NCBI RefSeq assembly: GCF_963921235.1
Contig: NC_086107.1
Location: 105,030,001 to 105,094,000 of the forward strand
DNA from: Mobula hypostoma
Taxonomy: Eukaryota
Length of the DNA: 64,000 bases
Reading direction: 5' to 3'
Shown here: positions 24,170 to 64,000 of the stretch, in pieces
Layout of the letters: each line of letters starts with the position of its first letter
Position numbering within the stretch: position 1 is the first letter of the stretch
Notes under the pieces: model-generated
Told to the model about the DNA's origin: nothing
Seen by the model: only the letters and a program-made list of their open reading frames with translations
Databases searched by the model: none
Position numbers and translations under genes: made by a program

Positions 24170-24398
24170 CGAAGGGGAACTGACCCGCCTCCTGTTAGCG
24201 GAAGGACCGAGGCAACAGCTATTTATAGATACTGTGGCGGTTTCTCTGAAATCACTGGGAATTCCGAGATGCAGGTCACGCACTGTGATCTATGTCCTGT
24301 CCTGCTCACAGTGCTGCGCTCAGTCCCCTTTGGGCAACGTCCTCCTGGCAGGCTGAAGAGCCGAGAGTGATCGGAGATCGGCAGGGAATCGCCGCAAA
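24170..24398 (+). promoter_or_regulatory. Putative promoter/5'UTR of the Ig receptor gene
   Basis: CTATTTATAG (MEF2 consensus, TATA-like) 24219-24228; GGGAATTCC (NF-kB-like) 24257-24265; CGGAAG ETS core near 24199; unique CpG-containing sequence just upstream of the ATG. Confidence 0.5.
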
Positions 24399-24426
24399 AT
24401 GTTGCTCCTGGCTGTTTTATTAATTG
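24399..24426 (+). CDS. LRC-like Ig receptor, exon 1 (signal peptide part 1, MLLLAVLLI)
   Basis: gcaaaATG (A at -3), nine mostly hydrophobic codons, phase-1 consensus donor G|GTGAGT at 24427; CpG-rich upstream region. Confidence 0.85.
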
Positions 24427-25831
24427 GTGAGTATGTACACCTCCATCGATAACCTCGTCAAAGGCAAGTTCTCCCAGTGGCGAAGGGCACTCCTGTTAAA
24501 CCACTCTGAACGGATGACAATTCCCGAGACGCCAATAGTAAAAGTCGGGACAGGGAGTCGTCGCTTACTCTCTCTCGGCTCTACTGATGCCTGAGAGGTA
24601 TTTTATGGTCAAAGCACCCACGGGCCTCTCTCCGCAGTGTCACAGTTCTATAAGTGCCCTGGGACTGTTTAAAATGTATATGGTTTTCGCTGTCACTGAC
24701 ATTAGGTTAGTGTGGCTGATGTGTCCTATGCCCGTAATTCACTGATGGTGGAAATGAGTGTTACTCGTTTTGAGGAAGCGCTAGTGGGGGGGGGGGCAGT
24801 CATTAATCCCCATACGTCTGAGCGCAACAACACCAGCGTAGGGAACGAACGGGAACCCTTTTTACAGAAGCCCAGAAAGCGATTTTGTCCGCAAGTCGGA
24901 AAGCGCGCAAAATCACTCGATATAGTAACCACACCTCGACGGTGTTGCAACGAATGGCGCATGGGATTGATAAGAAAGCGCAATTAAGGACGTGCACTAA
25001 ACGCTGAGAGAGGAATTTAGCAGTAAACACGGGAAAATTTGCAGACGCTGGAAATCCAAAGCAACACACACAAAATGCTGGAGGAACTCAGCGGGTCGGG
25101 CAGCGCCTATGGAAAAGGGTAAACTTTGGGCGTCTCGATGAGGGATCCCGGCCCGAAACTTTTCCATAGATGCTGCCTGGCTTGATGCGTTTCTCCAGCA
25201 GTTTGTGGAAGTTAGTGGTGTTGTTCCCAGGGACGAGCGTGGATACATATACCGGGATGTCTGAATTTAATAACGTTCTAGTTCTTATGTCAGGGTGTCT
25301 GTAAATCGAGTGTTTGTAACCCGGGGATGGCCAGTACTTATAACGATGCAGAGAAGGGGACCCGTCGGGTTTATGAAGGCTTTCCACAGTTTACCCACGA
25401 GCCTCAACCACTCGCTGATTTTCCTGTAAGTTAATCTCTCTCGCACGTCTATCAGATCACTCTAAATCGTTCCACACACAAATGCACTAGGTGCAGGCAA
25501 ACCAGCACGGTTCAGGGGTGGGAAGAAACTGGAGCTCTCCGAGGGAAGACCAAACAGGTCACGGGGAGAACGTGTCAACTTCACACGCGCAGCACCCTAG
25601 GGTCCGGATGGAACCCGGGAGGCAGCGGTTCTGCTGTGTGCCTGTTATTGCCCATCTGGATGGGTTCACCCAGCCCCAGTTCCATCCTCATGAAGTGGTA
25701 GCAGGAAATGGATACTCTTCCCACTCCACCCTGATGTCGCTCAGGGATATTTTATTGTTCCACCCACCCCCATTCTCATCCACATGTTTCTCATTGGGAG
25801 TGCAACTTGAAAATACCTGCTCCAATACCTC

Positions 25832-26652
25832 TGTCATAAGGGGGGCGTTGGGAAGGGACCCAAGTGCAGGACACAGACACTGAAGTACTAGGAACAGGTC
25901 AAGGTTTATCAAGAAAGCAAGGGGAGTCAGGAAGAAACGAAGCTGGACATGGACGCGGGCCCTGGACGAGACAAGGACAGGACACTGGGCCTGGGCTAGG
26001 ACTAAGACTAGGAAAGCAGGAACTGGACAAGGAACTTGGAGCTAGGAGCCTGGGCTAGGACTCTGAGCCAGAGCCTGGACAGGGACTGGAAACCTGGGTC
26101 TTGACTCGGGCTCGGACCCTGGATCTAGGCGGGGACAAGACATGGCTACAGGACTGGACGTGGAACTCCCGCACATGGACAGGACGAGAACACAAAGCCT
26201 TGACTTGGACAGGTCGAGGTTCTTGGACTAGGCTTAGACAAGACGAGGTTCTTGGACATGGCCTGGACTAGATAAGGTACTTGGACATGGCCTGGACTGG
26301 ACGAGAGACTCCTGGACTGGACGAGGGAACTCCAGCACAGGACGTGGCTCTTGGACTAGGTTTGATTAGGCTCTTGGGTACGGAGCCGGGACCCTCCTTG
26401 GAGCGCAGGGCCGGGATGACTGCCGAGGTGACCGCCGTGGAAACTGTCAGGGATTCAGATGGGGAGGGGAAGGGAACAGTCCAGCCGGGGAATCCTTGGT
26501 TTGCAGAGATATTTATGTGCTAGCCCAAAACAAGAATCAGGTGCCTCAATTAAGGCACCCAATGGAACAAGGGAAAACAGGAAAACCCGGAATAAGGATC
26601 GATGAACCGGACCGTGAACTAGAACGTGGATTTCACGGACTGGACCATGACA
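25832..26652 (-). mobile_element. Solo LTR, Gypsy-like (copy A)
   Basis: TGTCAT...ATGACA termini; 5-bp TSD ACCTC (25827-25831, 26653-26657); internal short tandem repeats. Confidence 0.85.
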
Positions 26653-27430
26653 ACCTCCTAATATTCCTGGGAGTCACCCTATGCCAAGGATGTTCTTGTG
26701 AAGTTTTAGGAAGTTCTGCTGTTTTAATGCACATCCAGATAGTTGTTTTGAGTGCAATTAGCACTAAGTGCGGCTGTCCACACACTAATACGCGGCACAG
26801 TAGCGGTTATCCGCAACGCCTTACAACACCGGCAGTGAGACCGGTGGCTCAATTCCCGCCGGAGTTTACGCGTTCTTCCCGTCACCCGGTGGGTGCTCCA
26901 GTTTCCTCTTACATTCCAAAAGACGCATGGTTTAGGGTTGTAAGTTGTGGGCCTGCGGATGGGATCTGCAGTGAGGTCCAGGGGCCAGGAAGGCGATACT
27001 GCAAGGCTCCGTGGAGAGCGCGGGACATGACAGGGCACAGAAGACGTCGTGGTCATTCACTGTAACCAAGGAAGACTCCAGTTTGTGATGCTTGTTTGTA
27101 CCACTGGACACGGACTTCGGAGTTCGAGAGAGTGGAACCGCCCGCTCTTTAAAAACTCTCCCGCATAGGTTTCCCGTCATTGTCGGACAAGACGGACAAC
27201 CACCATTTTTAACTCGCTGGCGCGAAGCTTGGCGACACCACGGGCTGCCGCCGACATAATCCTCGGACTGTGTTGGTCGTTGATGCAAACGATGCATTTC
27301 GGTGTACTTGTGACAAATAAAGCTAATATTGATTTCATGTACTCATAACCCTGACAACATCTACATGAAATCTCTCTGCGTTGATACTTTTTTTTGTGAC
27401 TGAACTGTTCAGGTTTTTTTTTCATTACAG

Positions 27431-27466
27431 CCCGCGCGTCTGGATTCCGGGATGCCGGAAACAAAG
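27431..27466 (+). CDS. LRC-like Ig receptor, exon 2 (36-nt leader mini-exon, ARASGFRDAGNK)
   Basis: Acceptor tttttttttcattacag, donor AAG|GTCAGT, exactly 36 nt, phase 1-1, open in the frame joining exon 1 to the Ig exon. Confidence 0.8.
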
Positions 27467-27940
27467 GTCAGTGCCTGGATCTAAAAGGGTGAAGGAAGTA
27501 CAGTATCTGATAACTTTCTCTAACTCTAAAGTTACTGTTTCAGTTTGGGGCGCAGAACATCAGACTATGAGAGTCACGGTACAACTCTTAAAAACTTTGG
27601 TTAGGCCACAGTAGGAATATTGTGTTCGGTTCTGATGGGCAAAAGGTAGGATAATGTACTGCAGAGGGTGCCGGGGATACTTACTAGGATGTTGGCTGGG
27701 GTGGGATGTTTCAGGAGAGATTGGATTGTTTTCCTTAGAGCAGATGAGGCAGAGGGGGAAACTGATAACATGTTTCAGGAACATAGATGGGGTAGATAGT
27801 GAGAACTTCTCCTCGCGATGGAGGTACAGTATCTAGAACCAGAGTTTAAGCAGAGGAGTAAGAAAGGAAGAGCGGATCTAATGAAAATCTTACAATTCAC
27901 TTAAAATGATTTAATTATCCTTCTGTGTTTTTTTTTGAAG

Positions 27941-28228
27941 AAGCTCCTAAGCCCTCATTGCATGTGATTCAGTCATCATCTGGTTCAGCACTCGGAGACT
28001 CTGTTATATTCACATGCGTAGCTCCTGGACGGGCCCCACCCACACACTTCATGCTCTACAAAGAAGGCTCGGATCTGCGATTCATAAACGAAGTGGGAAA
28101 CAGTTCTAATGTGGCCTTTGAGATCCAAATTGTAACCGTCTATGATTCAGGCCTTTACTCCTGCCGGTATCAGATCTCCAAGTCTGTGGTGTCAAGCCAC
28201 AGTGATTATGTGCATCTGACCGTGACAG
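27941..28228 (+). CDS. LRC-like Ig receptor, exon 3 (C2-type Ig domain, 96 aa)
   Basis: EAPKPSL...GDSVIFTC...FMLYKEG...AFEI...DSGLYSCRY...SSHSDYVHLTVT; two Cys 49 residues apart; poly-T acceptor ending gaag; donor CAG|GTGAGT; phase 1-1. Confidence 0.92.
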
Positions 28229-28499
28229 GTGAGTCCTTCTCCTCAGGGACTGCTCTGACCAAGCTTAATGTAATCTCTGGGGGAACAATCTCATTCTTCA
28301 ACTGGATATATTACAGACATCTGGAAACAGCATTCAACAATTTCAGACCTATTATTGCTGCTCCAAACTGCAGATGGGTTGGAAGTAATTTATATTTATT
28401 ACTTGTTCGGTCATTTCATAGTGTAATACAGCAGGAAAACAGGCCCTTCAGCCCAACTAGTTCAATGCAAGTTTAATTGTCATTCAACCATACATGAAT

Positions 28500-31400: not shown

Positions 31401-31552
31401 AGTTAAATTGGATAGATATATGGACAGGAAAGGAATGGAGGGTTATGGGCTGAGTGCGGGTCGGTGGTACTAGGTGAGAGTAAGAGTTCAGCATGGACTA
31501 GAAGGGCCGAGATGGCCTGTTTCCATGCTGTAATTGTTAAATGGTTATATGG
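28500..31552 (+). mobile_element. CR1 LINE ORF2, decayed, in intron 3 of the Ig receptor gene
   Basis: Several RT-fragment ORFs (NYRPVSL, DFRKVFDKV, KYADD, RRLRGDL). Confidence 0.92.
28703..29797 (+). mobile_element. Solo LTR, same family (copy B), inserted in a CR1
   Basis: TGTCAT...ATGACA termini; 5-bp TSD TTAAT (28698-28702, 29798-29802); host CR1 frame resumes (FYSYIN|SKRIVRDK); tandem units ~29340-29560. Confidence 0.88.
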
Positions 31553-33965: not shown

Positions 33966-36900
33966 GTCGTCCCTTTCATTGGTGAAGAGACTATGGCTGT
34001 AGGAAATGTTTCCAGGATGACCCCTCTGTGGGAGTGGGGAAGATGTTGGTGAGGCCACCCGGGGGTCTGTGCGTCCGTATGTGTAGCTATTGTAGTGGCT
34101 GTGAGGCTGGTATTGTGGCGGAAACGTACTGGGGGGGAGCCATCATATTCAGTATATATTCATATGCAGTACCCACGATCTGGGTTCAATTCCCACCACT
34201 GCCTGTAAGAAGTTTGTACGTTCTTTCACGTGGATTTCCTCCAGGTGCTCCAGTTTCCTCCCACAGTCCAAAGACCTACCAATTGGTAGGTTAGTTGGTC
34301 ATTGTAAATTGTTCCGTGATTAGGCGAGGATTAAATCGGGGGATTGCTGGGCAGTGCGGCTGGAAAGGCCAGAAGGGCCTGTTCCGTTTCCCCATAAATA
34401 AATAAACAAACAAACAAAAACAAACGGAAAAGGATGGAATTAATCTCTGATCTAACTCACTTGGGAGAGCCTGATTGGATCATAAAAGCAATACAGGGTC
34501 CAGCAGTGAAATGCAACAATTCACATCAGTCAGGGGGAGAAAGAATCCCATTCTTGTTTTAACACCTCCATGTGTGTTAGCTTTCAGAGATTCTAGAGAG
34601 CATTAAATATGCCGGTAGAAAAGTTAACTGGCTGCATCTGATTCCACAGCTCAGCTGTGTGATCAATTAGAACTAACAGGCTTCTTTGAGAACAGCATGC
34701 ACTTCCATTGTGTCTTTCACCAGCTCAGGATGTTCCATAGAGTTAGACACCCCGTGAAACACTTCTGTCACTGCAGTACTGTAATCGTTTCCAGACCATG
34801 ACCTGGATTGTTTAAAGCTGCCAACCCTATAATCGTGGCTCGATTGAAAGCAGAGACACGAGACTCTGCAGCTGCTGGAATCAAGAGTAAATCAAAAAGT
34901 GGAGAGAGTGAGAGAGAACTGGAGAGAGTGAGTAATTTCAAGTTCCTGGATGTTAATATCTCTGATGATCTATCCTGGTCCCAATATATCGATGCAGCTA
35001 TAAAGAAGACAAGACAGTGGCTGTATTTCATTAACCACATAACCACATAACAGTTACAGCACGGAAACAGGCCATCTTGGCCCTTCTAGTTCGTGCCGAA
35101 CTCTTACTCTCACCTAGTCCCACTGACTTGCACTCAGCCCATAACCCTCCATTCCTTTCCTGTCCACATATCTATCTACATGTGGGCACGTGGCCAAGTG
35201 GTTAAGGCATTGGACTAGTGACCTGAAGGTCGTGAGTTCGAGCTCCAGCCGAGGGAACGTGTTGTGTCCTTGAGCAAGGCACTTAATCACACATTGCTCA
35301 GTGACGACACTGGTGCCAAGCTGTATGGGTCCTAATGCCCTTCCCTTGGACAACATTGGTATCGTGGAGAGGGGAGACTTGCAGCATGGGCAACTGCCGG
35401 TCTTCCATACAACCTTGCCCAGGCCTGTGCCCTGGAGAGTGAAGACTTTCCAGGTGCAGATCTATGGTCTCACAAGACTAACGGATGCCTTTATTTTGAA
35501 CTATCCAATTTAACTTTAAACGACAACATCGAACCTGCCTCAACCACTTCTGCTGGAAGCTCATTCCACACAGCTACCACTCTCTGAGTAAAGAAGTTCC
35601 CCCTCGTTTTACCCCTAAACTTTTGCCCTTTAACTCTCAACTCACGTCCTCTTGTTTGAATCTCCCCCACTCTCAATGGAAAAAGCCTATCCACGTCAAC
35701 TCTATCTATCCCCCTCATAATTTTAAATACCTCTATCAAGTCCTCCCTCAACCTTCTATGCTCCAAAGAATAAAGACCCAAATGCTGCCCGACCGGTTCC
35801 TCCAGCAATGTGGCATTTTTCGAATCAGAATCAGGTTTAATATCACTGGCAATTAAGAGCTTGAGGAGTCTTGGTATATCACCAAAGACACTCGCAAGTT
35901 TCTACAGATGTGTTATGGAGAGCATTCTAATTGGCTGCATCACTCTCTGGTTTGGGGAGTAGTAGGCTGCAGAGTTATAAAATCAGTCAGCTCCATTATG
36001 GACACTAGCCTCCGTAGTATCCAGGACATCTTCAAGGAGCAGTTCCTCTTCCATCATTAAGGACCTTCATCACCTAGAACATGCACTCTTCTCTTTGCTA
36101 CCATCAGGAAGGAGGTACAGACGCCTGAGAGCTCACACTCAACGACTCAGAAACAACTTCTTCCCCTCTGCCATCCGATTTCCGAATGGACATTCAACCC
36201 ATGATCACCTACTTTTTTAAAATTTCTATTTTTGCACTACTTATTTAATTATTTAATATACATATACTTTCTGCAATTCACAGTATGAAATAATCTATTA
36301 CTGGGTATTGCATTGTACTGCTGCCGCAAAGTCAACCGATTTCACAGCACATGCCAGTGATATTAAATCTGATTCTGATTCTGAAAGATGCCACGTTGCT
36401 GGAGGAACTTAAGGGGTCAGGCAGCATCTGCAGGGGGAAATAGGTAGTTAATGTTTCCCTTCATCTGGACTGAGAGGTAGGGGGAGAAAACCAGCAAAGA
36501 GGTGAGGGTTTGAGGTGGAGGAGGGGCTGGTAAGTGATAGGTGCATCCAGGTGAGGAGGGGTAAAGGCAGCTGGAGGAAGGGAGAGTGAAACTAGCATCA
36601 GTGGCCGGAAGGTGATGGGTGGAGGCAACCAAAGGGCTGCAAATGATGGAATTGGGCAGCAAAGGAAGGTGGAGCATGGAACCAAATAAGAGAGGTGGGA
36701 ACAGTAGGAGAAGGGGTTCCAGTGGGATTCAGTCGATGATGGGCAGACGGAGTGGGTAGAGAAGGGGAATGAGATGGTGCTGGGTGACTGGGAGTGGGTG
36801 TCGGAAGAACTGGGTGGATCGGGTGGGGAGAATATAGACATAGGGGAATCAGCTGGCCTGAAACTGGACATTTGAAAGCATTTTCACCTCTGAGCTACTT

Positions 36901-37571: not shown

Positions 37572-37720
37572 AAATGCTCTGGCCAATAGCAGTGAGCGTT
37601 CGACTGATGATTGTGTTTATCCTACACATAGTTGTCCTCATTACCTGGATATTATATCCTGACTATGGGGAAGATTCAAAGAAATACAAGGCAGAGATGG
37701 CAGTACAAGAAAATGTATAA
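37572..37720 (+). CDS. LRC-like Ig receptor, exon 4 (TM with Arg, short cytoplasmic tail, stop)
   Basis: Acceptor ttatttctctccattag; phase-1 frame reads EMLWPIAVSVRLMIVFILHIVVLITWILYPDYGEDSKKYKAEMAVQENV*; the four exons total 501 nt = 166 aa + stop. Confidence 0.8.
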
Positions 37721-38514
37721 TGTTCACAGATAATTTTAAAATGAATGAATGAATTATTAAATCCCTTAGTATGCTTTTCCAGTCTCTAGCTCTTCGGGCC
37801 AGAGTGCATTGAGCTCCAAGGTTTTTACAGCACTTGAACTGGTTAATTGTTGCTTAACGAGAGTCGTTAGTCATTTAGAGTTTCTTGTGTTTTTCTCGAG
37901 CGACTCGTTCTTTGTAATGCGGTCTCTTGGTGCTTTTCATTTAAACTGCTGGGTTTATTTGGCTTGGGGATTCCGTGTTACTTGTGTTATGTAAGCAGAC
38001 GCCCAATTAGTGCTAATCGCAGGGTCCTAGTTTTGAGAATGTTGCTTCTCACGGTGTTGCTTGGCCGAGCCATCGAGGTTCTGTTGGAATTATTATTGAA
38101 TAAAATCTGGTTGCCCTCTCTACATCAGAATCTGTCGTTTGTTCACACTTGGGTTCTGATACTGCCAGAGCACATCGTGATACACATGGCAACTAAGCAC
38201 AAATTGTTCAAAGACATTGCAATGCTTGTTCATGGGAACATCTTTAATTTTAATTAGAGGGTTGGCTGGTGCTATGTGAACAAGCCCCAATACTAGACAC
38301 TTGCCAGTAGCCTCTCCAATACAACTGCTTCTTCGGCCTAATAGGACCAAGAAATTGTCATTACTCAACTGTCATGTTATAGACACCATTAAAATTAAAT
38401 TATGTTAATTTATATCTGTGAAAACTTAAGACAAGTACAGTATACTCAGTTATCATTGCCTATTATAGAGCCATAGAAAAGTACAGCACAGAAACAGGCC
38501 CTTTGGCCCATCTA

Positions 38515-49269: not shown

Positions 49270-49600
49270 GGGACCACCGCGCGTCAGAAATGAAGCTCAT
49301 TCGGAAGCGGAAATAGCGGCGAGTCGGGTGAAAGGTCGTTGCTAGGATGAAGATGGCGGACAGGCGCTGCGCCTGAATTTGCGGGACGTTCTTGAGTCGC
49401 GTTCATTTTTATTTCGGCGGCGGAGGAGGGGGAGAAGAGCGTCGCAGAGATGGGTCGGAGGTCGACCAGTTCCACCAAGAGTGGGAAGTTCATGAACCCC
49501 ACCGACCAGGCCCGTAAGTTCGGGAAGAGGGACGGGAGAACCGAGGCTATGGCTGGGGTTCGGGGTTGGGGCCTGGGCTGGCGTATCGCGGATAAAATAT
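49270..49600. promoter_or_regulatory. CpG-island promoter of WBP11
   Basis: Local CpG enrichment; tandem ETS/GABP site CGGAAGCGGAAA 49302-49313; YY1 motif AAGATGGCGG 49350-49359. Confidence 0.8.
49450..49513 (+). CDS. WBP11: WW domain-binding protein 11, coding exon 1
   Basis: MGRRSTSSTKSGKFMNPTDQA(R), the conserved WBP11 N-terminus; donor C|GTAAGT. Confidence 0.97.
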
Positions 49601-49989
49601 CGATGTTCTAAACTCACCTGCAATTAAACCAGTTTTCATTCTATACAGAAGATCTCCAGCATTAAACTGGAACAATATATATTGCACCCAGCCTCTCTAA
49701 TTTTGCTGATCCGTTGTCCAGTGGGGAGCCTACTACTCGTAGGTTCACGCAGAGACTTGAACACATTATCCAGGCTGAGACTTGTTATTGATGAAAGGGG
49801 AGCGCCTGGCTCTAATAGGGATTGCGCCGAGGAGGTGCTGCGTCGTTGTAGGTATTGGCTGTTTGGATAGGACTTTGAATGCAAAGCATCTTCCCAATTT
49901 TCCATAAGTTCAACAATATTCTGCTATCAGATGCAAATTTCTTTGCCATTTCAACATTTTGAGGGGATTGTTCCCTTTGCAACCCCTTT

Positions 49990-50930
49990 AAGGCTAAGCA
50001 CTGCTCCAATGCTGTATTTTAAGTTTGCTGATGACCCCTCTGTCGTTGTCTGAACCAAAGCTGGTGACCAATCAGCATATAGGAGAGAGTTTGAAAATCT
50101 GGCTGAGTGGTGCCACAACAACAACCTCCCACTCAATGTTAGCAGGAGCAAGGTGTTGATTATTGACTACAGGAGGAGGAAACTGGAGCTCCATAAGCCA
50201 GTCCTCATCGGGGATTCAGGGGTAGAGAGCATCAGCAACTTTTAAATTCCTCAGCATTATCATTTCAGATGATCTGTCCTGGGCCCACCATGTAAGAGCC
50301 GTAACAAAGAAAGCACAGCAGTGCCTCTACTTTCTTAGAAATTTGTGAAGGTTTTGCATGTCATCGAAAACTTTGACAAACTTCTATAAATGTACAGTGG
50401 AGAGTATACTGATGGTTTGGATTACGGCCTGATATGGAAACACCAATGTCCCTGTATGGAAAAGCCGACATAAAGTAGTGGATCCAGCCTAGTCCATCAC
50501 GGGTAAAGCCTCCCCATCACTGAGCATATCCATGAAGAGTGGTGACACGGGAAGGCAGCATGCATCATCAAATGCTGCACTATCCAGGCCATGCTCTCTT
50601 CTTGCTGCTGCCGTCAAGAGGGAGATACAGGAGCCACAGGTCCCACACCACCAGGTTCAGGAACAGTTATCCTCAACCTCAACCATCAGGTCCTTGAACC
50701 AGAGGGGATAATTTCACACAACGTCACTCACCCCAACACTGGACTTCCCATAACATATGGACTCATTTTCATAGGCTCTTCATCTCACGTTCTTGATATC
50801 TATTGTTCGTTTATTATTTTTTTCCATTGGTATAGCTTGTTGTCTTTTGCTCATTGGTCATTTGGCTATCTTGTGTGAGGTTTTTCATTGATTCTGTGGT
50901 GTTTTTTGGTATTTACTGTGAAGGCCTGAG
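49990..50930 (+). mobile_element. Decayed Rex1-like LINE in WBP11 intron 1 (similar relics 17085-17380, 35850-36380, 41540-41980, 62480-62930)
   Basis: KFADD...AYRREFENLAEWCHNNNL.LNVS..K; same family as 44908-45640. Confidence 0.85.
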
Positions 50931-53661
50931 CTGTCTTTCTAGTGAAACAGTGACTTACTTACAACAAAAATGATGTACTGCATCCAGTTCATGATGTGGT
51001 CTTCTGTATACAGTTAAAAAAAGAAAATGTGGATTGGGTAATTGACCAGTGGACCACTTGCATTCAGTCTGCAAGGGTATCCACGAGCTCCGTCTTGGGG
51101 TTGGAGTACCGTCTGTGTGGGTGTGCGTGTGTTTGCACGTGGGTGCGTGGGAGAGAGGAACAGAACTTGTTTTGCTGTCATTCTGTTGCTGTTGTCTTGT
51201 TATTATTGTTGCTTGTGTTGTTCTGTGAACATTGTGGACCGGCTATGTTGGTGCTGGAATGTGTGGCAACACTTGTGGGCTGTCCCCAGCACATCGTTAG
51301 GTTGTGGTGTAAATGTGATAAATTAATGAATCTTAATCTCTTGCCTGCTACTTTAATTCTCCATCCCGCTCTCACTCTGCGCTCTCTGTCTGAGGCCTCT
51401 TGCCATGTTACAATGAGGCTGAAGGCTTGAAGAAGAATACCTCATCTTCCACAAAGGCAACTTGGTGCTTTTTGGTTTTAATATTGGGTTCTATAACTAT
51501 ATGTAACTGTTTCTTTCTGTCTTTTCTGCTGGTAATTGTGTTTTTTTCGCTCTCTATTCATTTAATCTGGCCTGCTGCATTTTCCCTGCTGTTAGCAATA
51601 GGTAACCCATACAAAAAAACATATTTGATTTTAACCACTTACTCTGCCATATTAGCTCATTTGATCTCACCTTATCAAAGATATTCCCTTTGTTCCACCT
51701 GAAAACTAACTAGTTTCTCTCCTTAGTTCTGTTAAAGGGTCTTGGCCTTGAAACATTAACCATTTCAGCTTACACAGATGCTGCCTGTCCAGTTGATTCT
51801 TTACCAGTATTTTCTGTTTTTATGCCAAATTGCCAGCATCTGCAGCACTGGCTGAGGAAGTATAGGTAATTAAACCCAGTGGCCTGATCATTATTAATTC
51901 CTCAATCAACATCACTAAAATAAATCGAGGAAAATTACTGCAGGTACTAGAAATTAAAAACAAAACCAGAAGTACTAGAGTTACTGGGAGGTGATACGCT
52001 ATTAAGTTCATGGTGTCAAACAGCATAGAAACAGTCCCTTTGGCCCAACTGGTCCTTATCGAGCCAGACGCCACCTAAGCTAATCCCATTGGCCCACATC
52101 CTTCTAAACCTTTTCAATCCTTTAAATTGTGTTATTGTACCCACCACTACTCTGGTTGTTCCATGTCCAGATCGTCCTCTGGGTGAAAAAGTTGCCCCTC
52201 GTGTCCCTCACCTGAAGCCTATGCCCTCAAATTCTTGGTTCCTCAATTCTGGAGAGGGGTGAAGACTGTGAATTCACTACCATCATAATTTTCCCTATCC
52301 ATTGAGGAAACCAAATACAAATTTGCAGAACTCCTGTCCCTTTGATTCTCCATTGTACTCCTACTCTGTTGCTTTGTTTTGGGCTGCTATACTGTTCCAG
52401 CAACAAAGTTCGGAACCAACATTTTAATGAAAGATGGCAGGCTTGCGATTGTAGTCGGATACTTTTCATTAGAAAACATTTTCAAATAAATGTCATTGAC
52501 TTAGAACATCAACTCCATTTCTACCTGACTTCCAGTGTATTTACAGATGGATACCTGTCATTTTCTGTTTTCATTTCTCTGATGATTTGTTCATTGTCAC
52601 CCTTATGGTTTTGGTTGTTCATTCTGCAGAAACTGCTATGATTCATACTTTATTATCAGTCCGTTAAACTTTCCCAGGATTGGAGAATCAAGTGGAAGGC
52701 ACAGATTTAAGGTTAGAGGGGAAAGAATTGATGGGCTGATCTTGCCAATTAATGCGTCGAGGAAGATTGAAAGTCAGGTGTTCACTGCAGGTTACCAACC
52801 TCTCGTTTGTTGCTGCCGGAGGAAGATATCTACTTGTGATGGTCTCTCCCTCTAGCGCACCGCTTCCAAAGGAATCCCTGCGTTCGAGTGGTTTCTCCCT
52901 CTCCCTTGATGCTGTTGGAGGATGGTGACAGAGTTCTGGGTCTTGGGCAGGTTTAATCAATGTGGTTTGTGGATTAGATTCTAATTCACATTATGCTGTC
53001 TTTCTGGTCGCTCCTTTTTTTTTTACTATTTTGGGTAATTTTGAATCTGTGCTGCCTGCAGACAACAAACATTGAGCTGAACTGAATAAGTCTGCATTCT
53101 TTTGTTTTCTTTCTGTGTTTTTTGCTCTTTTTTTTTGCATGTGGGGTGGGGGTAGGGTGGAGTTTGATGTTCCATGGTTGTCTTTGTTTTGTGACTGTCT
53201 GGGAAAGGCGAATCTCAGGGTTGTATACTGCATACGAACTTTGAATCTTTGGAACTTAAGGCAACTTGCTTTTTACTCAAAAACTGACATCTATGTGGAA
53301 TGAGGTTCCAGAGGAAATGGCTGAGGCAGGTACAACAACAACTTTTAAAATATACTTGGACAGGTACATGGATTTGAAAGATTTAGAAAGTTATGGGCAA
53401 ATAGAACTGGCTTGGATGGGGCATCTTGGTTGGCATGAAAGTTGTGCCTATGGGTCTGTTTCCCTGCTGTTTATTCTGACTCTCTAAGACAGCAAAAGCT
53501 ATATACTTTGAAAAGTTGTTGATTTTAAAGTATGTTAGATTAAAGTCTTGAGGTTGTGAAAGACTCGAATTTGTTATGGAAAATGTATGTGGAAGATTTT
53601 CCTTTTCCTTTCATCTTTTCTCCTGTTCCAATCTAATTCACAATTTTTCTTCATTAAACAG

Positions 53662-53693
53662 GAAAAGAAGCCAGGAAACGAGAATTGAAAAAG
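53662..53693 (+). CDS. WBP11: WBP11 coding exon 2
   Basis: (R)KEARKRELKK; ag/gtaagt boundaries; 32 nt. Confidence 0.95.
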
Positions 53694-54425
53694 GTAAGTC
53701 AGCTATCTTTATTGTTTATGTGGCACAGCAGGGCTTAAGAATTAATAAACCTTTGTTTGGTTTACCTGTGTCATAGAAGATAAAGGAACTATTACATTAA
53801 ATACCAAACTGCATAAGACCATGGACTAATCAGCTAACCAGGCCTTGCTGTAATATTGCCTCCAGCTTAATTTTCTTGCCTTGTTGCCGTATTTTTTCAA
53901 CCTCTTTTCAATTCATTCAAATTTTAAATATTCAAATGAATTCTGCGTAATTGCAGACTAAATATAAAGAAGTATTGTCTGGCTTTCTAAATCTATTGCA
54001 GTCTCAACCTTTTCTTCATATGCTGTTCCGCTGATCATTTGATGGGTTTATGACCAACTTGTGAATATGAACCATTCCCAGCAGAACAACCTAAGGTTAA
54101 TCCTTGGTTCTGCTGCTTTTGCTGATTTGAGCTGGATAGCAGTTACAGTCTGCAGTTAAGTTCAATGTTCCTGGTTTTGAAAGTGGATGGAGAGAAAGCA
54201 TTTTGTCCCAATTTTCTCTTTGTAACTATCGATCTTAAAGAGAAGAATGTTCAAAGAAGCAGCACCTATTGTAGCATGGAAAGAATAGAGAGCAAAAACA
54301 TTACAAATTGCGGTGAGAGGGATTGAGACTAGTAACATTTTTAAAAAAAACAAAAAAAACACCCAGCTATCCTTCTTCCCCCAACCCCCAGCTTTTTTTT
54401 TCTGGCGTCTTCTACCTTTCTTTGA

Positions 54426-54461
54426 AGTCCTGAAGAAGGGTCCTGGCCTGAAACGTTGACT
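54426..54461 (+). ncRNA. Minimal hammerhead ribozyme motif in a Penelope terminal relic, WBP11 intron 2
   Basis: AGTC-CTGAAGA-AGG-gtcctgg-CCT-GAAA-CGTT-GACT; palindromic AACGTT in place of helix III. Confidence 0.55.
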
Positions 54462-54681
54462 GTTTGTTCATTTCCATGGATGCTGCCTGACCTGCTGAGT
54501 TCTTCCAGCTTTTTGTGGACTAGTTGTCATGATCTGAGCTGCATGGTTACCTGAGTTCACATTGTGTTAATCCAGTTGCATTTCTAGCAGTGTTCTTTAA
54601 CTAATAATCTGTAGATTATTCTGGTTTTAAATTTAAGTTGGAATAAATTTCTGAGTGATTTGTGCTCTCTGTGCCTAACAG

Positions 54682-54775
54682 AACAAGAAGCAACGAATGA
54701 TGGTGCGGGCAGCTGTGCTCAAAATGAAGGACCCCAAACAAATAATCAAAGACATGGAGAAACTGGATGAAATGG
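54682..54775 (+). CDS. WBP11: WBP11 coding exon 3
   Basis: NKKQRMMVRAAVLKMKDPKQIIKDMEKLDEM; cag/gtaaag; 94 nt. Confidence 0.96.
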
Positions 54776-55449
54776 GTAAAGAACAATTAGAATGTTCCAG
54801 GAAAGAACTACAAGATGACCTTATTTAAGAATACATTAAAGATATTGGGCTAGCCACTGTGTTTGTGTTAAGAAAAAGTATTTTCATTATATTTGAGTTA
54901 TATTGCTGTCCACTTTCATGTTTGGAATGAAATTGACAAGTGGTTGGTTATCTTGGCATAAACTCCAATGTTCCAATCTCTACAGTGACCATTATGCCAG
55001 TTAATTCCTATTTTATTTTGTGCATGCACCACTATTTATTAATTTTAGATCACCCAGTGTTGTTAACATTTACCCTACTGCTGCCACAAAAAAAACCAAC
55101 AAATTTCATGACATATGTGAGTGAAGATGAACCTAATTCTAATATGGATCTCTATTGTGGACGAGAATGGGAAGGGGGCAGGGAAAGGGCAATCAGTTCA
55201 GAAAAGGGAAGGGAGTGGGAAGCACTAGAGAGACATCGTGTAATCATCAATAAACCTATAGTTTGGAATCAAATGACCTTGCCTGGTGACTCGGGGCTGG
55301 ATGTGTCAGCATCTGTGTCACCCCCTTCCCCTGGCATTCCTCTGCCACCTGTCTCACAGCCCTCGGGTGGTGCTCCACCCTCGTCTTTCCCAACATCCTT
55401 TGCTCCCGCCAGATTTACAAACTTGCTGTCTGCACCACATTGACAAATA

Positions 55450-55507
55450 CAATACTGTGCAAAGGTCTTAACTATATATGTTTGCCTAAGACTTTTGCAC
55501 AGTACTA
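55450..55507. mobile_element. Tiny Tc1/mariner-type MITE (hairpin)
   Basis: CAATACTGTGCAAAGGTCTTA...TAAGACTTTTGCACAGTACTA inverted ends flanked by TA. Confidence 0.55.
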
Positions 55508-55998
55508 TATTCAGAATGAATAGCAGAAACTACGAGCTTGGGATACTACAAAGTGTTTCAGAAAGTGTCTAACCTACCTGCTCATTGAAAGCCACTACCC
55601 TGTGGGGGGTGGGGATTGGCCTATGCAAGGAAAGTTGTAGCTCCTCCCAGTACTTGCCATTTCACTGTGCCAGTAGAGTTTAAATCTAGCGCGTGGTAAC
55701 CACGTGACCTCTTTTTCACTCTCTGGGTCGCTGTAGACCAGGTAGTTGAGGATACATGTAGGGTTTACTGAATGTCTTGATTTGAAAATAAATAGTTAAC
55801 TTGCTGTACTTAGCCATATTGAGTCTCTTCTGTCCCCACTCACCTGATTTCACACAGCACATTGTGTTGGGGTTTGGCATATTTTCAAGTGTTTGCACCA
55901 GGTTTTTGATGATACTTAATGTGCAACTTCAGTGTTTAATACATCAAAGTGCACAATGCTGGATTGAGATCACTGACTTTTTCACGAATGTTCTGCAG

Positions 55999-56195
55999 AG
56001 TTCAATCCTGTTCAACAGCCCCAGCTTAATGAGAAGGTATTGAAAGATAAGCGGAAGAAACTCCGAGAGACATTTGAGCGAATCCTGCGTCTGTATGAGA
56101 AGGAAAATACTGATTTTTATAAGGAGCTGCGGAAACTTGAGACCGAATATGAACAGAAGCGATCCCAACTTTGCCAGTTCTTTGATGCTGTGAAG
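55999..56195 (+). CDS. WBP11: WBP11 coding exon 4
   Basis: EFNPVQQPQLNEKVLKDKRKKLRETFERILRLYEKEN...FFDAVK; cag/gtgagg; 197 nt. Confidence 0.96.
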
Positions 56196-58360
56196 GTGAG
56201 GGATGAGGAGAAGTTGTTTCCGTGTTAAGGAAATTTTGTTAACTAGAATTATCTTGTACTTGCTTCCATTGAAGGCTTTTGATTATAAAATGGTGTGGTT
56301 TTAGAGTGAATGGATATTTTGCTTTACGTACCTTGTTATTCCCATGTTTAATTTCCTTTATTGGAAATGCACCCTGCTCTGTTCATTTCTGCTTTGGCCT
56401 GTATCTCCCAATTGTGCATATGGAATACAGTAGTAAATGAAATGTGTATTTTGTTCAACTTTTACCTAGTTATTAGTGAGTTTGGAGATATTAGGGAATA
56501 TTTTGTGAGCTGTTTCCTTATCTCTGTGAACATCACTTGCCAAAGTCTTGAGCTTTCGAAGAATATTGTCACTTTGGTTCAGCGCTACCTCACTCGTAGC
56601 GTTGAGGCACGTTGCTCAGGCAGGGTATGAAGCGATTTGATCAGCATTGAACTGTGCCGAACCTGACCTGCCAATTTTAATGTGTAACTCAGGAGCTAAC
56701 TTGTCGGTTTTAAGGAAATCATGCTCTGATTAGTTCATTTGTGTACAATTTTGATGACTGTTATTTTTCATTCTTTATAAACTCAATACTTTATGTCTAA
56801 TTATTCTCTGATTTAAATACATACAAAGCAACTCTGTTCACATCATCTGAGCAGGGTATCTAACTGTGGATATCATTAATTCCACACTAGTAAATCTCTG
56901 GCAAATTATTTGTGCTGTCAGCTATTCTTCTGTTGGCTTCACAATTTTGTAGTTTCAGGGTAAACCAGTAAGTGCTTGAAGACCAGTCTCTCCGGGGTAT
57001 ATGGTGCTATACCGTCTTCACTTCTTTTGCTTCACACCCAATACTAATGGATAAAATGTAAATTACGAAACAGATGCTTTCCGAAAACAAGTGTCCCATG
57101 GGTAACTTCGACCTAAATCAGGAAGCGGCGTTTTCATGCTGCTCATTACTCTGCTGACCTTTTTGAAGGTGCTGTTTGCCCACCTTTTATGAAAGAAGGC
57201 TGATGCCTCAAAATGGAGATGAGGATTCCAACTTCGTCAATAGAACGACACTAGCCCACGGTGAGACTCTCAGTTGCAATTATTGTCAGATACTACTTTT
57301 GAAGAGACTTTCACTTAGAACAGAGTTGCAGGTGGTGTTTTACACATGGAGCTGTACTGAGATCAACAGGACAAGTGTACCTGCTTTCTGCAGTCTGGCT
57401 ATCGTCAAGGAGGTTCAAGATCAAGGGAGCACTGAGAGCAGACTCTGAGCCCAGTACTTACTGCCCATTACGGGGCTGGCATTTAGGGCAGCAGTGAAGG
57501 TCATCTCTAGCAGTGTTCAGAGTTTCCTTCATGTCAGTAGCTTCCTCTCTGCTTTCACTACTGTCGGTCATGCAAGTCCCGGGTAGAGACTCAGGAATAC
57601 CGTCTCACTCAGAGGTAGAAGGATTCTTCATTGGTGTTTTGGTAACAATTTTGTTTTACCAGTCAGGGTTGTTTGCTCTGAGCTGAACCCCTGAACCTGC
57701 AGGACCGGTGGACCCCTCTACCGTTTGCCATTTTTGGCGTTGGTGACCCGACCAAGAGCCAAAGCATAAAGCCCTGACTCCAGCCAACATCGCTCTCCGG
57801 GTCATTGAAGCATGCAAGCCTCCAACCCGACACAAGGTTGTGGTTCTCTTGGAGGTCTGAGCCCAGTAGAAATGACAGATAGGAACAGTTATTAATGAGA
57901 AAAGCGTGGCTAATGATTTCAACTAATGTTATTAAAATAACTAGTTTGTCTTTTCTAAGAATTGAGGAGTCTGTGCATTTAAAATAAGTACCTTGTACTG
58001 AAACAGTCCCTGAAGATACCATTGCTCTCCTTCGGTTTCATTAGAACATTTAAATATCAAGCCAGTTTTCTGGTCCACTGTTTTACACCCCCCACCACCA
58101 CCCTGATGTAAGTGGTAATTATTCAGGAACCATTCAAACTGATCTCTGCTGTTGGACGCTTGTAATTCCAGTGCAGTTCTTTGTAGATTTCTGCCGACTT
58201 CACCTTTGAGAAGCATCCAAAGCGAAGAACATGAATGATTGGAATAATATACATCAAAGATCATTGTTGTTGGTGCCACAAGGTTGTGATTTTACTTTTT
58301 AAAAAATTCTGTGGAGGAGCATTAGTTACAGCGTGGCTTTTTTGCTTGTTTTCTGAACAG

Positions 58361-58494
58361 AATGCCCAGCACGTGGAGGTGGAGAGTATTCCACTACCAG
58401 ATATGCCTCATGCACCGTCAAACATTATGATTCAGGACATACCCCTCCCGGGAGCTCAACCACCCTCAATATTGAAGAAAACATCAGCTTATGG
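58361..58494 (+). CDS. WBP11: WBP11 coding exon 5
   Basis: NAQHVEVESIPLPDMPHAPSNIMIQDIPLPGAQPPSILKKTSAYG; cag/gtgagc; 134 nt. Confidence 0.96.
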
Positions 58495-59543
58495 GTGAGC
58501 AGTAATTAAATTGTACAAGCAGCTCCTTTGGCAAGAAATTGAGCGGAGAATATTTAAAATTACAAGTATTATGTTTAAGATATGAAACTCTTTGTCTATT
58601 CGTATCTAGATCTTAAATATATTAAAGAAAAATTTATGGGCACATAACATTTCTTGCTACTTACACCAGGAAAATCCTAATTAGAGTGGGTTTGTTAATT
58701 AGGACTATTTTTCTGGTTAAGTGTGAGAAGTGGAGTGATGTGAACAGTCAGCTTATTGCTTATTGAAGCTGCCTGGTACAGATGTAGTATACGGGGTGGG
58801 GGGCAGTAGAGGTGCTGTAAGATTGGGGTTCGATACCTACTGCTGTCTCTAAGGAGTTTGTATGTTCTTCCTATGATTGCTTGGGTTTCCACTGGGTGTT
58901 CTGGTTTCCTCCCACTGTTAGGGTTAATGACTTGTGGGCATACTGTGATGCTGCCGGAAGTGTGGCAACACAGGCTGCCCAACACAATCCTCACTGATTG
59001 ATTTGTTGCAAATGATGCATTTCGCTGTGACAAATGAAGTTAGTCTTTAGATGAAAATGACTACTTTAATGGTTTATACCATCCTTTGATGACGGAGAGC
59101 AATGTCAGGTGACAGATGTATGGTGGCATGAATCTTTTGACGTGGATTTTAAGACTTTAGTATACGGTGTCTTTTCCACACTTGATTGTGCAATGAAATA
59201 TAGTGGAAATGTTTATGATAAGTAGTGATATTACACAGGTAAAATATCTTTTGGTTAAGATAAAGTTGGATGTAATTCAGCCCTCATATTAAAGGCATTG
59301 CATTTGTCTATCAGTTCATTTTGGGACAAACTTCTAGTAAGTGCGTGGCCAGAGTCTTTAATATTAATATCAATGTAGAAGTGAGGTAAATAAATCGAAT
59401 GTTTTATCATAACATGGTACTGACTCTCCATGGTATGTTAGACTGAGTACCTGAGATTACAGACATGCATGAATTTTAATTTTTAATTTGGTCTTTATAG
59501 GAGGGGAAAAAGTCATCATAAATTAACTATTTTTGTTCTTCAG

Positions 59544-59743
59544 GCCACCCTCCAAACCTGTTACACTTATACCACTTCCTTCTTACGGGGTTCCACGGTT
59601 GCCGCCTGGTAAGAAGCCACCCGGTCCTCCGCCAGGTCCTCCACCACCACAGGTGTTAGCACTTTATGCCCGAAGGATGGGCCCTCCTCCAGGTTTACCT
59701 CTGAAGGGAAAGGATGACGATAATGTCTACGATCCTGAAACTG
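59544..59743 (+). CDS. WBP11: WBP11 coding exon 6 (Pro-rich)
   Basis: PPSKPVTLIPLPSYGVPRLPPGKKPPGPPPGPPPPQV...YDPET; cag/gtaaga; 200 nt. Confidence 0.95.
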
Positions 59744-59897
59744 GTAAGACATCATGTTTTAGAGAGGCTGCTGAGCTCCCTGCTTTGATACTGAATGACT
59801 GTGCTGGGATAGTGTGAGAGTGTAATTTTGGGAATGTTAATTCTGTAGTGCCTGTGGTTACTGTGTATATGATTCCAACCTGACCTTTGCCTTTTAG

Positions 59898-60098
59898 CAA
59901 TTCAGGATATGCAGGAGGATGAGGAGGAGGAAGACAGTGGGGATGATGATTACAACGATGGCATGGAGCAGGATCAAGATGGAGATCGAGATGATCAAGA
60001 TGAAGACAGTGATGATTCAAAGGATAAAGACAGTGATGACGATGATGATTTTCGGCACCGGGATGAAGATGATGACAGGTTGGACGATGATAAGCCAG
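59898..60098 (+). CDS. WBP11: WBP11 coding exon 7 (acidic)
   Basis: AIQDMQEDEEEEDSGDDD...RLDDDKP; tag/gtattt; 201 nt, phase 1-1. Confidence 0.9.
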
Positions 60099-60211
60099 GT
60101 ATTTTCATGAGAGTGGGGATTGGTGGCACTTCCTCATGGCTTGACTGCTGTGTCCTTCATTTTATGTCGCTTTTTATAAGAACATTGAAATATTTCAATG
60201 TTTCTCCTCAG

Positions 60212-60313
60212 GACGTACTGTGCGGTTTGCAGATGTGCAGGACAAACACAAGAAGAAAAAGAAAAACATGAAGGAGCTGACTCCTCTGCAGGCCATGATG
60301 CTTCGAATGGCAG
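60212..60313 (+). CDS. WBP11: WBP11 coding exon 8 (RVxF-type PP1-docking motif)
   Basis: GRTVRFADVQDKHKKKKKNMKELTPLQAMMLRMA; cag/gtgagt; 102 nt. Confidence 0.95.
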
Positions 60314-60423
60314 GTGAGTGATAATACCCTTCATTGAGAGACCAGTGATCTGTCAGAGGGAATGAAATGATGGCATTGATGCATTTTAAGAGATAGTATA
60401 CAGATAACTTGTACAAGCAGTCA

Positions 60424-61117
60424 ACATAGAACAGTACAGCACAGTACAGGCCCTTCGGCCCACAATGTTGTGCTGACCCTCAAACCCTGCCTCCCATATA
60501 AGCCCCCACCTTAAATTCCTCCATATACCTGTCTAGTAGTCTCTTAAACTTCACTAGTGTATCTGCTTCCACCACTGACTCAGGCAGTGCATTCCACGCA
60601 CCAACCACTCTCTGAGTAAAAAACCTTCCTCTAATATCCCCCTTGAACTTCCCACCCCTTACCTTAAAGCCACGTCCTCTTGTTTTGAGCAGTGGTGCCC
60701 TGGGGAAGAGGCGCTGGTTATCCACTCTATCTATTCCTCTTATTATCTTGTACACCTCTATCATGTCTCCTCTCATCCTCCTCCTCTCCAAAGAGTAAAG
60801 CCCTAGCTCCCTTAATCTCTTATCATAATGCATACTTTCTAAACCAGGCAGCATCCTGGTAAATCTCCTCTGTACCCTTTCCAATGCTTCCACATCCTTC
60901 CTATAGTGAGGTGACCAGAACTGGACACAGTACTCCAAGTGTGGCCTAACCAGAGTTTTATAGAGCTGCATCGTTACGTCGTGACTCTTAAACTCTATCC
61001 CTGGACTTATGAAAGCTGACACCCCATAAGCTTTCTTAACTACCCTATCCACCTGTGAGGCAACTTTCAGGGATCTGTGGAGATGTACCCTGAGATCCCT
61101 CTGCTCCTCCACACTAG
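60424..61117 (-). mobile_element. CR1 LINE 3' fragment in WBP11 intron 8
   Basis: Open C-terminal ORF2 frame (LYKTLVRPHLEYCVQFWSP...RRMRGDMIEVYKI). Confidence 0.93.
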
Positions 61118-63293
61118 GTAACTTCTTAAGTAACTTTCCTATTGTTTCCTTACCTGCAAGTCCAGAAAAGTCCCAAGCATTGATCTGCAGAAAATGCTGA
61201 GTTGGCTGATCATGGACAGAACATTTGTAAAAAGTCAACAGATAATACTAATGGGGGAAACAATACTACAGCTCTACAGATTGGAAACATTTAACATCAG
61301 GAATCGAAGTAAACAAACAAAGGCATATTCCATTAGGTCTGTGAACCAGTTATTGGACACGTCTAAAGAGTGGGATGTAGTGTAAGAAATTAACGTGTAA
61401 TTTTTGTCAGTCGGAGACGTTGGGATCTAAAAGATCTTATTAAAGTGGTGGTTGCTAAATCCTTTCATCATCATCATTATCTGCCGTGTTGTATGATGTA
61501 GGCGATCGTGATTGTTCTAGGCAAAATTTTCTACAGAGGTGGTTTACAATTGCCTTCTTCTGGACAGTGCCTTTAGAAGATGGTGGCCCCAGCCATTATC
61601 AATACTGTTCAGAGATTGTCTGCCTGGTGTCAGTGGTCACATAACCAGGACTTGTGGTATGCACCAGCTGCTCATACAACCATCCACCACCTGTTCCATG
61701 GCTTCATGTAACTATGATCGCGTGGCTAAGCAGGTGCTACACTTTGCCCAAGGGTGACCTGCAAGCTAGCAGAGGGAAGGAATGCTTACACCTCTTTTGG
61801 TAGCAACATATCTTCACCCCGCCACCCTTTAAGTAAATGATTTAAGTCATTATAAAAGGGTATTGCGCAAGAACCTGAACTTGCTGAATTGGGAAAAATA
61901 AGCAGGAATTGGCCATAGAGCCACCATTTGGTGTGAGAGCTGGCCAGACCAATTACTCTTTCAAAGAGACAGCACCGAACTGATGTTCTAATTATTCTCT
62001 TTTGTATTATCTTTTTTCATGAGGTAATTCTGTGATATTGAAATGTATAATTTATTAGCCCTCACGTTGGTCTTGGTATTATCTCAGGGAAAATTCAACT
62101 GCTGAGCAATAACTAGAGATACCTTTACATACATTAGTTCAGGTTTGCCTCACCATGTGAAATAACTACCTGTCAACGATCACATGAAGAATGGCCGGCT
62201 GTGGCAGATGACAAAGGATTTGCCTTTGTAATTGAACTGGAATGATAATTGATGCAGTGGAAGATAATTAATTTGTATTGTTGGGGGTGGGGATGGTGAA
62301 GTGTAAAGGAAGTCCTGAAAGATCAAATAGACATGAGTTAGAAAGCACTTCTGTGAAGTAGAAGTGGGCCCTGAAATTCCATAGAGGTCCTCTTATTTAA
62401 ATATATACACCTTACACGTTTTCTCTTGAGTTCTTGTCTTCTGCTGATGTTGCAATTGGAGACTGATAGAGATCTTGTAGAATTTCGGAATCTAGTTTAA
62501 TATCACCAGTGTATGTCGTGAAATTTGGTGGCTTTGCAGCAGCAGCACAATGCAGTACATAATAAGAAGAAAAATCTTCGTGGGTTCAATGTCCATTCAG
62601 AAATCGGATGGCACAGGGGAAGAAGCTGTTCCTGAATCACTGAGTGTGTGTCCTCAGGCTCCTGTACCTCCTCCCTGATGGTAGCAATGAGAACAAGGCA
62701 TGACCTGGGTGATGGGGTCCTTAATGGTGGACACTGCCTTTTTGAGGCATCGCTCCTTGAAGATGTCCTGGATACCACAGAGGCCAGTGCCCATGATGGA
62801 GCTGACTGAGTTCACAACTTTCTGCAGCTTCTTTCGATCCTGTGCAGTAGCTCCCCGCCCCGCCCCCCCCCCCCCCAACCATACCAGACGGTGTTAGAAT
62901 GCTCTCCATGGTATATCTATAGAAATTCAGGGCCACATATTTTCAAAATTTACCCAGGGTAGTGTACCATAGTACTCGGCTTTGTTGTGTATCTAATCAT
63001 GTAAACTCTCACAAAGAATTGTTGCATGAGATTAGGATTCATTGAATTGGGATAATATGTAACCACGGGTTGGGTGTTGATTGATGGAGCAACAGGGTGT
63101 CACTGATTGAGTTACTTCAGGATCATTTCTTGCCCTCAGCTGTTTTCATGAAGATGACACAAAATATGGAAACAAATGTATTTCCTATCAGTAGTTTGGA
63201 AATTAATCTAAAAGGATGCAGTGAAAGGTAGAATGTGTCGTGTCTAAGAAAATTGTAATTAGAAATTAAAATGCAGTATCTGCTTTCTAACAG

Positions 63294-63575
63294 GACAAGA
63301 TTTCCCAGAGGAGGAGGAGGAGGAGGAAGAGGAGCCCACTCCTGAGGCAGCTGCTGAAGAAGAGAAGATGGATACGGAGGAACAGAATCGGGAAAAGCGA
63401 CAGCTGGAGGAAAGCCAGCCAGAGGGGCCACAGGTACCGCCGCCAACCCAGATGCCTCCCAGAGCACCAATGCAAGCTCCACCGATGCCTGGGCCTCCTC
63501 CGCTTGGACCTCCACCTGCACCCCCACTAAGACCCCCAGGGCCACCATCTGGTCTACCACCAGGACCACCCCCAG
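63294..63575 (+). CDS. WBP11: WBP11 coding exon 9 (acidic + Pro-rich); gene continues beyond window
   Basis: GQDFPEEEE...PMPGPPPLGPPPAPPLRPPGPPSGLPPGPPP; cag/gtaaga; 282 nt; no stop reached. Confidence 0.94.
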
Positions 63576-64000
63576 GTAAGAAACAAGATTGAAGTATTGA
63601 AATGGCTCCCAATGATGTGACTGTTTATGATGGAAGCTGAACATTTGAAATAAGCATCATGCTGTGTCCTTGCACTATCTACCGTACCAGTAGATGTTTG
63701 AAGTTGCTCTGTCTAACTCGAGTGGATCTGAGCTAATACAGTTGAAGCACGGTGGAGAACTGGAAGGTAAAATGAAACATGGATTCCTCTTGACACATCA
63801 AATTCAAACTTACCCACAAGCAGTTTACTCTGTGATAACTAGCAATGCAGTTAGAGTAATAATGCTTCTTTTAATGAACAGTTATGGATAGCTGCTTCTC
63901 AAATCTTGTCATCGGTGTAAGTCTGGCGAAGAGTGGTGAAAATCTTTGCCTTGTGTGTTTATAGATTTCTAAGCCTTGAACAGCTAAAGAGCAGTGATGT

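Follow-up and report, generated by a model that had tools for sequence, protein, structure and literature searches.

The receptor gene and its split leader

The window, by which we mean the whole stretch of 64,000 nt that was analysed, corresponds to C45:105.03–105.09 Mb in the 3.48-Gb genome of the ray Mobula hypostoma. It contains a gene with four exons on the forward strand, which codes for a type I receptor formed by a leader, one C2 Ig domain, a transmembrane (TM) segment and a short tail. The coding part of exon 1 (24399..24426, + strand) has 28 nt; it starts with ATG, codes for a hydrophobic leader core and ends in phase 1 with the donor GTGAGT. A scan of positions 1–27400 for first exons with an ATG start, phase 1 and a hydrophobic product gave four candidates, and only 24399–24426 fits. 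Transcript contigs extend upstream of this coding part to at least 24332. The second leader exon (27431..27466, + strand) has 36 nt and phase 1-1. It is followed by the exon of a single C2-type Ig domain (27941..28228, + strand, 288 nt), recognized by Pfam Ig_2 (5e-12) and by the transcript joints. The acceptor of the Ig exon is a tandem NAGNAG with an alternative start at 27944, and pairs of isoforms with 165 and 166 aa are present in two rays.

The transmembrane segment and the tail are found in the last exon (37572..37720 up to the stop codon, + strand), which completes a frame of 166 aa. The segment has an Arg near its outer end and a His 8 residues later; the tail has about 20 residues, without tyrosine motifs. 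The whole protein is identical to XP_072129103.1 of Mobula birostris in 159 of its 166 residues. We infer the link between the Ig and TM exons from the X2 contig: its 546 letters past the Ig exon would end at 38117, 13 nt behind the sequence motif AATAAA (38099..38104, + strand), a polyadenylation signal. A putative short alternative terminal exon (34724..34740, + strand) agrees with the last part of M. birostris isoform X3 (XP_072129105.1); on the basis of this agreement it would yield a soluble form with one domain.

The 36-nt exon of the receptor gene is genuine, and it is spliced. Upstream it is bordered by a T-rich acceptor tract ending in CAG, downstream by the donor GTCAGT. In a scan of both strands of the window, with approximate generic splice matrices, its score of 19.3 is the highest among 5126 stop-free AG-(12–60 nt)-GT candidates; the runner-up among those with 36 nt has 14.1. 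Transcript contigs of four runs were also aligned to 24250–28330. We presume that these runs are RNA, and take their spliced GT..AG joints as evidence. Exon 1 is joined to the mini-exon in three of the four runs (X1 and X2 from organism A, X4 from organism B), and the mini-exon to the Ig exon in all four (X1, X2, X4 and X8, organisms A, B and C). Among the 15 joints listed, out of 47, none skips from exon 1 to the Ig exon. The sequence-only reading had proposed a 28-nt exon and an exactly 36-nt phase 1-1 mini-exon with strong splice sites; both the scan and the joints confirm this arrangement, and exon 1 is not always spliced straight to the Ig exon. A processed gene copy is an unlikely source of the joints, because a genome search gave a single match with full identity.

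The intron behind exon 1 has a cryptic cassette exon of 132 nt (25294..25425, + strand), whose GT..AG joints occur in two runs only, X1 and X2. It is a poison exon, with an in-frame stop three codons in. Contig depth, a poor measure of level, differs little between the two forms: it is 4.1 for inclusion vs 4.3 for skipping in X1 and 46.6 vs 64.8 in X2. Only contigs of organism A contain this exon; it is absent from the joints listed for organisms B and C. Possibly it is a recent exonisation which lowers expression, and together with the soluble isoform it may tune the output of the receptor. Elsewhere in the window a CR1 LINE (28540–31500) is interrupted by an LTR-like insertion (28700–29800), which contains short tandem repeats, and there is a diverged inverted copy at 25830–26650. 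The long open reading frames of the window are mostly fragments of CR1-type or other retroelements.

Orthologues and the transmembrane segment

The gene is already present in RefSeq, under automatic names only: XP_072129103.1-105.1 in Mobula birostris (uncharacterized) and XP_072889352.1-354.1 in Hemitrygon akajei (IGSF1-like). Our literature search found no published analysis of these accessions. The orthologues are 96% and about 84% identical to the window protein, while a third relative, the transcript protein P0153, has 58% identity. Both RefSeq models have the same 9 residues in exon 1 and the same 12 codons in the mini-exon. The orthologue of the sawshark Pristiophorus japonicus has the same leader of 9+12 residues, as judged from protein length only; 4 of the 12 residues of the second segment are identical in ray and sawshark (shuffle p 0.013). 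The expectation that the length of the 36-mer is conserved holds for the 12 codons of three rays and, at the protein level, for the sawshark, but not for P0153, which carries 15 residues at this position. Exon 1 would provide the hydrophobic core of the signal peptide and the mini-exon its cleavage region. Cleavage after residue 12 or 14 fits the -3/-1 rule in the window protein; P0153 fits the first only.

There are two Ig domains in the sawshark and in the chimaera Callorhinchus milii, and one in batoids, which may have lost one of two ancestral domains. The remaining domain would be seated directly on the membrane. When searched by word index, the Ig exon gave no relatives of greater length.

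The TM segment is common to five family members, with an invariant Trp and an invariant His. A basic residue is present in four of the five, Arg in three of them and Lys in Callorhinchus; H. akajei has Gln. Recruitment of an ITAM adaptor by a TM Arg is established for LILRA, FCAR and OSCAR. By analogy with these receptors and with CHIR-A, the Arg of the ray protein, in the outer leaflet, would pair with an acidic TM residue of such an adaptor. The presence of Gln in Hemitrygon and the invariance of His suggest, from sequence comparison, that the His may outweigh the Arg as polar contact. A search for ITAM adaptors gave one weak ITAM match, which is uninformative; in the available sections of PMC4016189 no FcR-gamma is reported in sharks.

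An NxxR motif with a TM Arg is given in the accessible part of PMC6557307 as characteristic of the activating type of LRC receptors. It is absent here: none of the five TM segments of the family has Asn at -3. The classical FcR activating motif (M/L)Fxx(D/N)TxL, as it appears in excerpts of PMC2413239, is not present in them either, and none of the 99 other TM segments with which they were compared is a diagnostic match. Two fish FcR-like proteins, P0066 and P0107, have a Trp/Arg/His segment loosely like that of the family, with a similarity not above that of other TM segments.

Genomic setting and phylogeny

The sole Not3 (CNOT3) gene found in the genome lies about 200 kb downstream of the receptor gene, at C45:105.26 Mb. 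According to the part of PMC6557307 available, CNOT3 is a member of the conserved group of genes which flank the LRC. Between both genes there are WBP11 and a coiled-coil gene. WBP11 (49450..64000, + strand) is recognized by Pfam Wbp11 (5e-6 on 54682–54774), a start codon and further exons; it begins 11 kb past the receptor polyadenylation site, on the same strand. The exons of the coiled-coil gene, at C45:105.11–105.14 Mb, are weakly CCDC96/CCDC113-like (Pfam E 0.026).

The LRC cluster is flanked by TTYH1/LENG8 and NDUFA3-PRPF31-CNOT3-LENG1-TMC4-MBOAT7-RPS9. We have looked for eight flank markers, with putative identities assigned by Pfam family and position. One of them is near the receptor gene, five are on C80, one is on C91 (NDUFA3) and one was not found. 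The Ribosomal_S4 profile has no match in the genome and is uninformative. In C80:34.57–34.64 Mb the MBOAT-TMC-Cir_N-PRPF31 matches appear in mammalian order, with no Not3 match in the slot which CNOT3 has in mammals. C80 also has, at 15.7–19.5 Mb, the four next-best Ig exons of the genome (30–36% identity) and every one of the 30 matches obtained with a shark IGSF1-like protein; they flank a Tweety gene (19.18 Mb). This cluster of LRC-like Ig exons is partly formed by SRCR+Ig mosaic genes. It is probably the true LRC region of the ray, and more important than the single receptor gene.

Trees were calculated with 141 domains (FastTree) and with 81 of them (IQ-TREE, LG+G4, 99 columns). In the 81-domain tree, whose reference rows are matches of the receptor query and many of them labelled by likeness, not by name, the six domains of the family group together (83/80). 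They lie outside a group of 45 rows with tetrapod LRC and C80-type domains (91/83). In another tree the family is weakly sister to the LRC + C80-type group. AU tests reject none of the four placements, with the LRC + C80 group (p 0.43), tetrapod LRC alone (0.30), FCRL (0.17) or PECAM-type domains (0.37). Placing the family with FCRL costs 16.7 units of log-likelihood; placing it with the LRC-type group costs 1.5.

The absence of Not3 from its slot in the C80 block, the position of the family outside the LRC + C80 group and its own type of TM segment would all agree with a gene that arose together with the LRC receptors in a whole-genome duplication, as their ohnologue; CNOT3 would have stayed in its segment, and the main cluster on C80. 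In this case the leader was already split before the duplication. We also count in its favour the place of WBP11 on human 12p, a region for which paralogy with 19q13 has often been proposed. However, the map is explained equally well if CNOT3 was translocated once, either alone or together with the receptor gene; the map comes from one genome and the tree gives no firm placement. We consider this origin unlikely.

Kinship of the receptor

The M. birostris orthologue was modelled with AlphaFold from an alignment of five sequences; the model has a mean pLDDT of 76.8 and a helix at 120–145. When it is compared with known structures by VIA-align, the 50 best rows are all LRC domains (Z 14.8–12.8, rmsd 1.5–2.4 Å). 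With Foldseek 35 of the 43 rows listed are LRC, and the first one that is not, an FcR, has rank 25. Such rankings are favoured by the richness of the PDB in LRC structures. As modelled, the Ig domain is of the LRC structural type. The best single-domain sequence match in the PDB is CHIR-AB1 (7.5e-9).

Other searches point elsewhere. By whole-protein E-value FCRL5 comes first in two PDB sequence searches. Among outsiders, the family profile finds PECAM1-like domains best, with 55.8 bits, while no named LRC domain of tetrapods goes beyond 37.5. The Atlas feature search has HIDE1 in first place, which it shares, at 0.96, with LILRA6 and KIR clusters. The receptor could thus be of FcR/FCRL, PECAM1 or HIDE1 type, or a separate Ig receptor, and match the LRC in its 36 nt by chance. 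The AU tests reject neither the FCRL nor the PECAM placement, the sawshark orthologue bears the RefSeq-type name 'Fc receptor-like protein 1', and the Arg/His segments of the two fish FcR-like proteins mentioned above are loosely similar. Many genes of the secreted pathway have leader micro-exons of phase 1-1. The exon length varies in Xenopus FcR-like genes, as reported in excerpts of PMC2413239. Against this stand the structural ranking, which is uniformly LRC in VIA-align, the higher cost of the FCRL placement and the absence of a 21-nt exon. The lead of FCRL5 is a sum of many weak domains, the best of which has 18.4 bits vs 38.5 for CHIR-AB1. We judge such an affinity quite improbable.

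How much does the exon length tell? The second leader exon typically has 36 nt in KIR, LILR, FCAR and NCR1, and 33 nt in GP6 and OSCAR. Our literature search found no printed statement of the 36-nt rule for the first four. In turtle LRC proteins among our search matches the leaders would divide as 10+12 residues, judging from the proteins. A paralogue in the C80 LRC-like cluster, with a stop in the frame of its Ig exon, has a strong 33-nt mini-exon candidate. It comes from a micro-exon scan of three targeted 3-kb stretches which precede C80 Ig exons; the second stretch gave a candidate of 36 nt with a poor donor and the third nothing convincing. No usable leader was found in six C80 stretches of 10 kb, which covered internal exons of long genes.

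On the FcR side, a second leader exon of 21 bp is described as a hallmark of FCR/FCRL genes in the sections available of PMC7940838 and PMC10003336. A 30/21 leader rule is obeyed by only 'a fraction' of the Xenopus FcR-like genes (PMC2413239, in part), and in CD5L, a scavenger receptor outside the LRC, the leader is also split, its second exon being given as 35 bp (PMC7940838, in part). Since about a dozen in-frame lengths are possible, our rough estimate of the likelihood ratio of the exon length for LRC kinship is near 5, a modest value which is supporting, not diagnostic. The contrast between 21 nt in FcR and 36 nt in LRC genes, on which the sequence-only reading relied, is sound in that the 21-bp hallmark is documented and the mini-exon differs from it, but it is blurred by the Xenopus exceptions, the 35 bp of CD5L, the 33-nt paralogue and the 15 residues of P0153. 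As to the homology with the LRC deduced from it, fold and CNOT3 support the kinship independently, while the exon length alone is a weak character. The mini-exon is in itself an ordinary feature, which counts as one character among several.

It is still less probable that the mini-exon is the trimmed 3' end of a lost first Ig exon, so that its length would be silent on the family: the 15 residues of P0153 have their best ungapped match at the end of the first Ig domain of the sawshark (6/15, fixed-position shuffle p 0.005, chosen post hoc) and batoids have one Ig domain vs two in sawshark and chimaera, but the Mobula and Hemitrygon peptides fit the 12-residue leader of the sawshark (p 0.013 and 0.026) over the domain end (p 0.50 and 0.40), the three extra residues of P0153 may be read as a 9-nt upstream shift of the acceptor into the pyrimidine tract, and we found no trace of a first Ig exon in the window.

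It appears reasonably probable to us that the gene represents a divergent, LRC-related lineage of receptors of cartilaginous fishes (rays, sawshark and chimaera), probably activating. We file it as an LRC-like variant, not as a member of the LRC, because the NxxR motif fails and neither location nor tree gives a firm placement.

The closest known systems are the activating LRC receptors (LILRA, FCAR/CD89, OSCAR, GP6, NCR1/NKp46 and TARM1) and chicken CHIR-A/CHIR-AB1. The C2 Ig domain of the ray superposes best on theirs. They also share the division of the leader over two exons, the second with the length typical of the LRC, a TM segment with a basic residue at its outer end, and a short tail. 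The ray receptor differs from them by the lack of NxxR, the conserved His and Trp of its TM segment and the variable basic residue; its gene has no stalk exon, is single and lies outside the main cluster, and identity is about 22–32%. The nearest Ig exons in the genome belong to chondrichthyan genes with the automatic names 'IGSF1-like', 'A1BG-like' and 'LILRA6-like' and to SRCR+Ig mosaic genes. Several of these genes appear to have leaders of similar length, judging from their proteins. In contrast with the ray receptor, they are multi-domain, lie clustered beside Tweety on another contig, have a different TM segment and are not joined with it in the tree. FCR/FCRL proteins, including Xenopus XFL and fish FcR-like proteins, also have a split signal peptide and C2 domains of weak sequence similarity. 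Some of their non-mammalian members have Arg in the TM segment (PMC2413239, sections available). The ray receptor is unlike them in its second exon, 36 nt instead of 21, in the rank of its FcR structural matches, below those of the LRC, and in the absence of a D1-D2 FcR module.

The sections available of a 2014 survey (PMC4016189) give no direct C2-only LRC homologues in sharks and date the origin of the family to bony fishes. A 2019 study (PMC6557307) considers that even fish LRC counterparts are uncertain, and the words 'shark' and 'cartilaginous' do not occur in it. In the accessible part of a 2026 survey (PMC13262535) the KIR/LILR cluster is classed as mammal-specific. In our literature search, with a partial coverage of immunogenetics, we found no earlier report of chondrichthyan LRC genes. 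We tentatively suggest that LRC-type receptors with a split-leader plan may already have been present in the last ancestor shared by all jawed vertebrates. In that case cartilaginous fishes hold a large LRC-like cluster next to TTYH1 and a separate, conserved Arg/His receptor with one or two domains beside CNOT3/WBP11, possibly a genome-duplication sister of the LRC. If this is true, an expressed LRC-type receptor in rays, sawshark and chimaera, together with the LRC-like cluster next to TTYH1, would push the family back to the origin of jawed vertebrates, and the receptor would be a simple, single-copy candidate for probing the ancestral adaptor and ligand.
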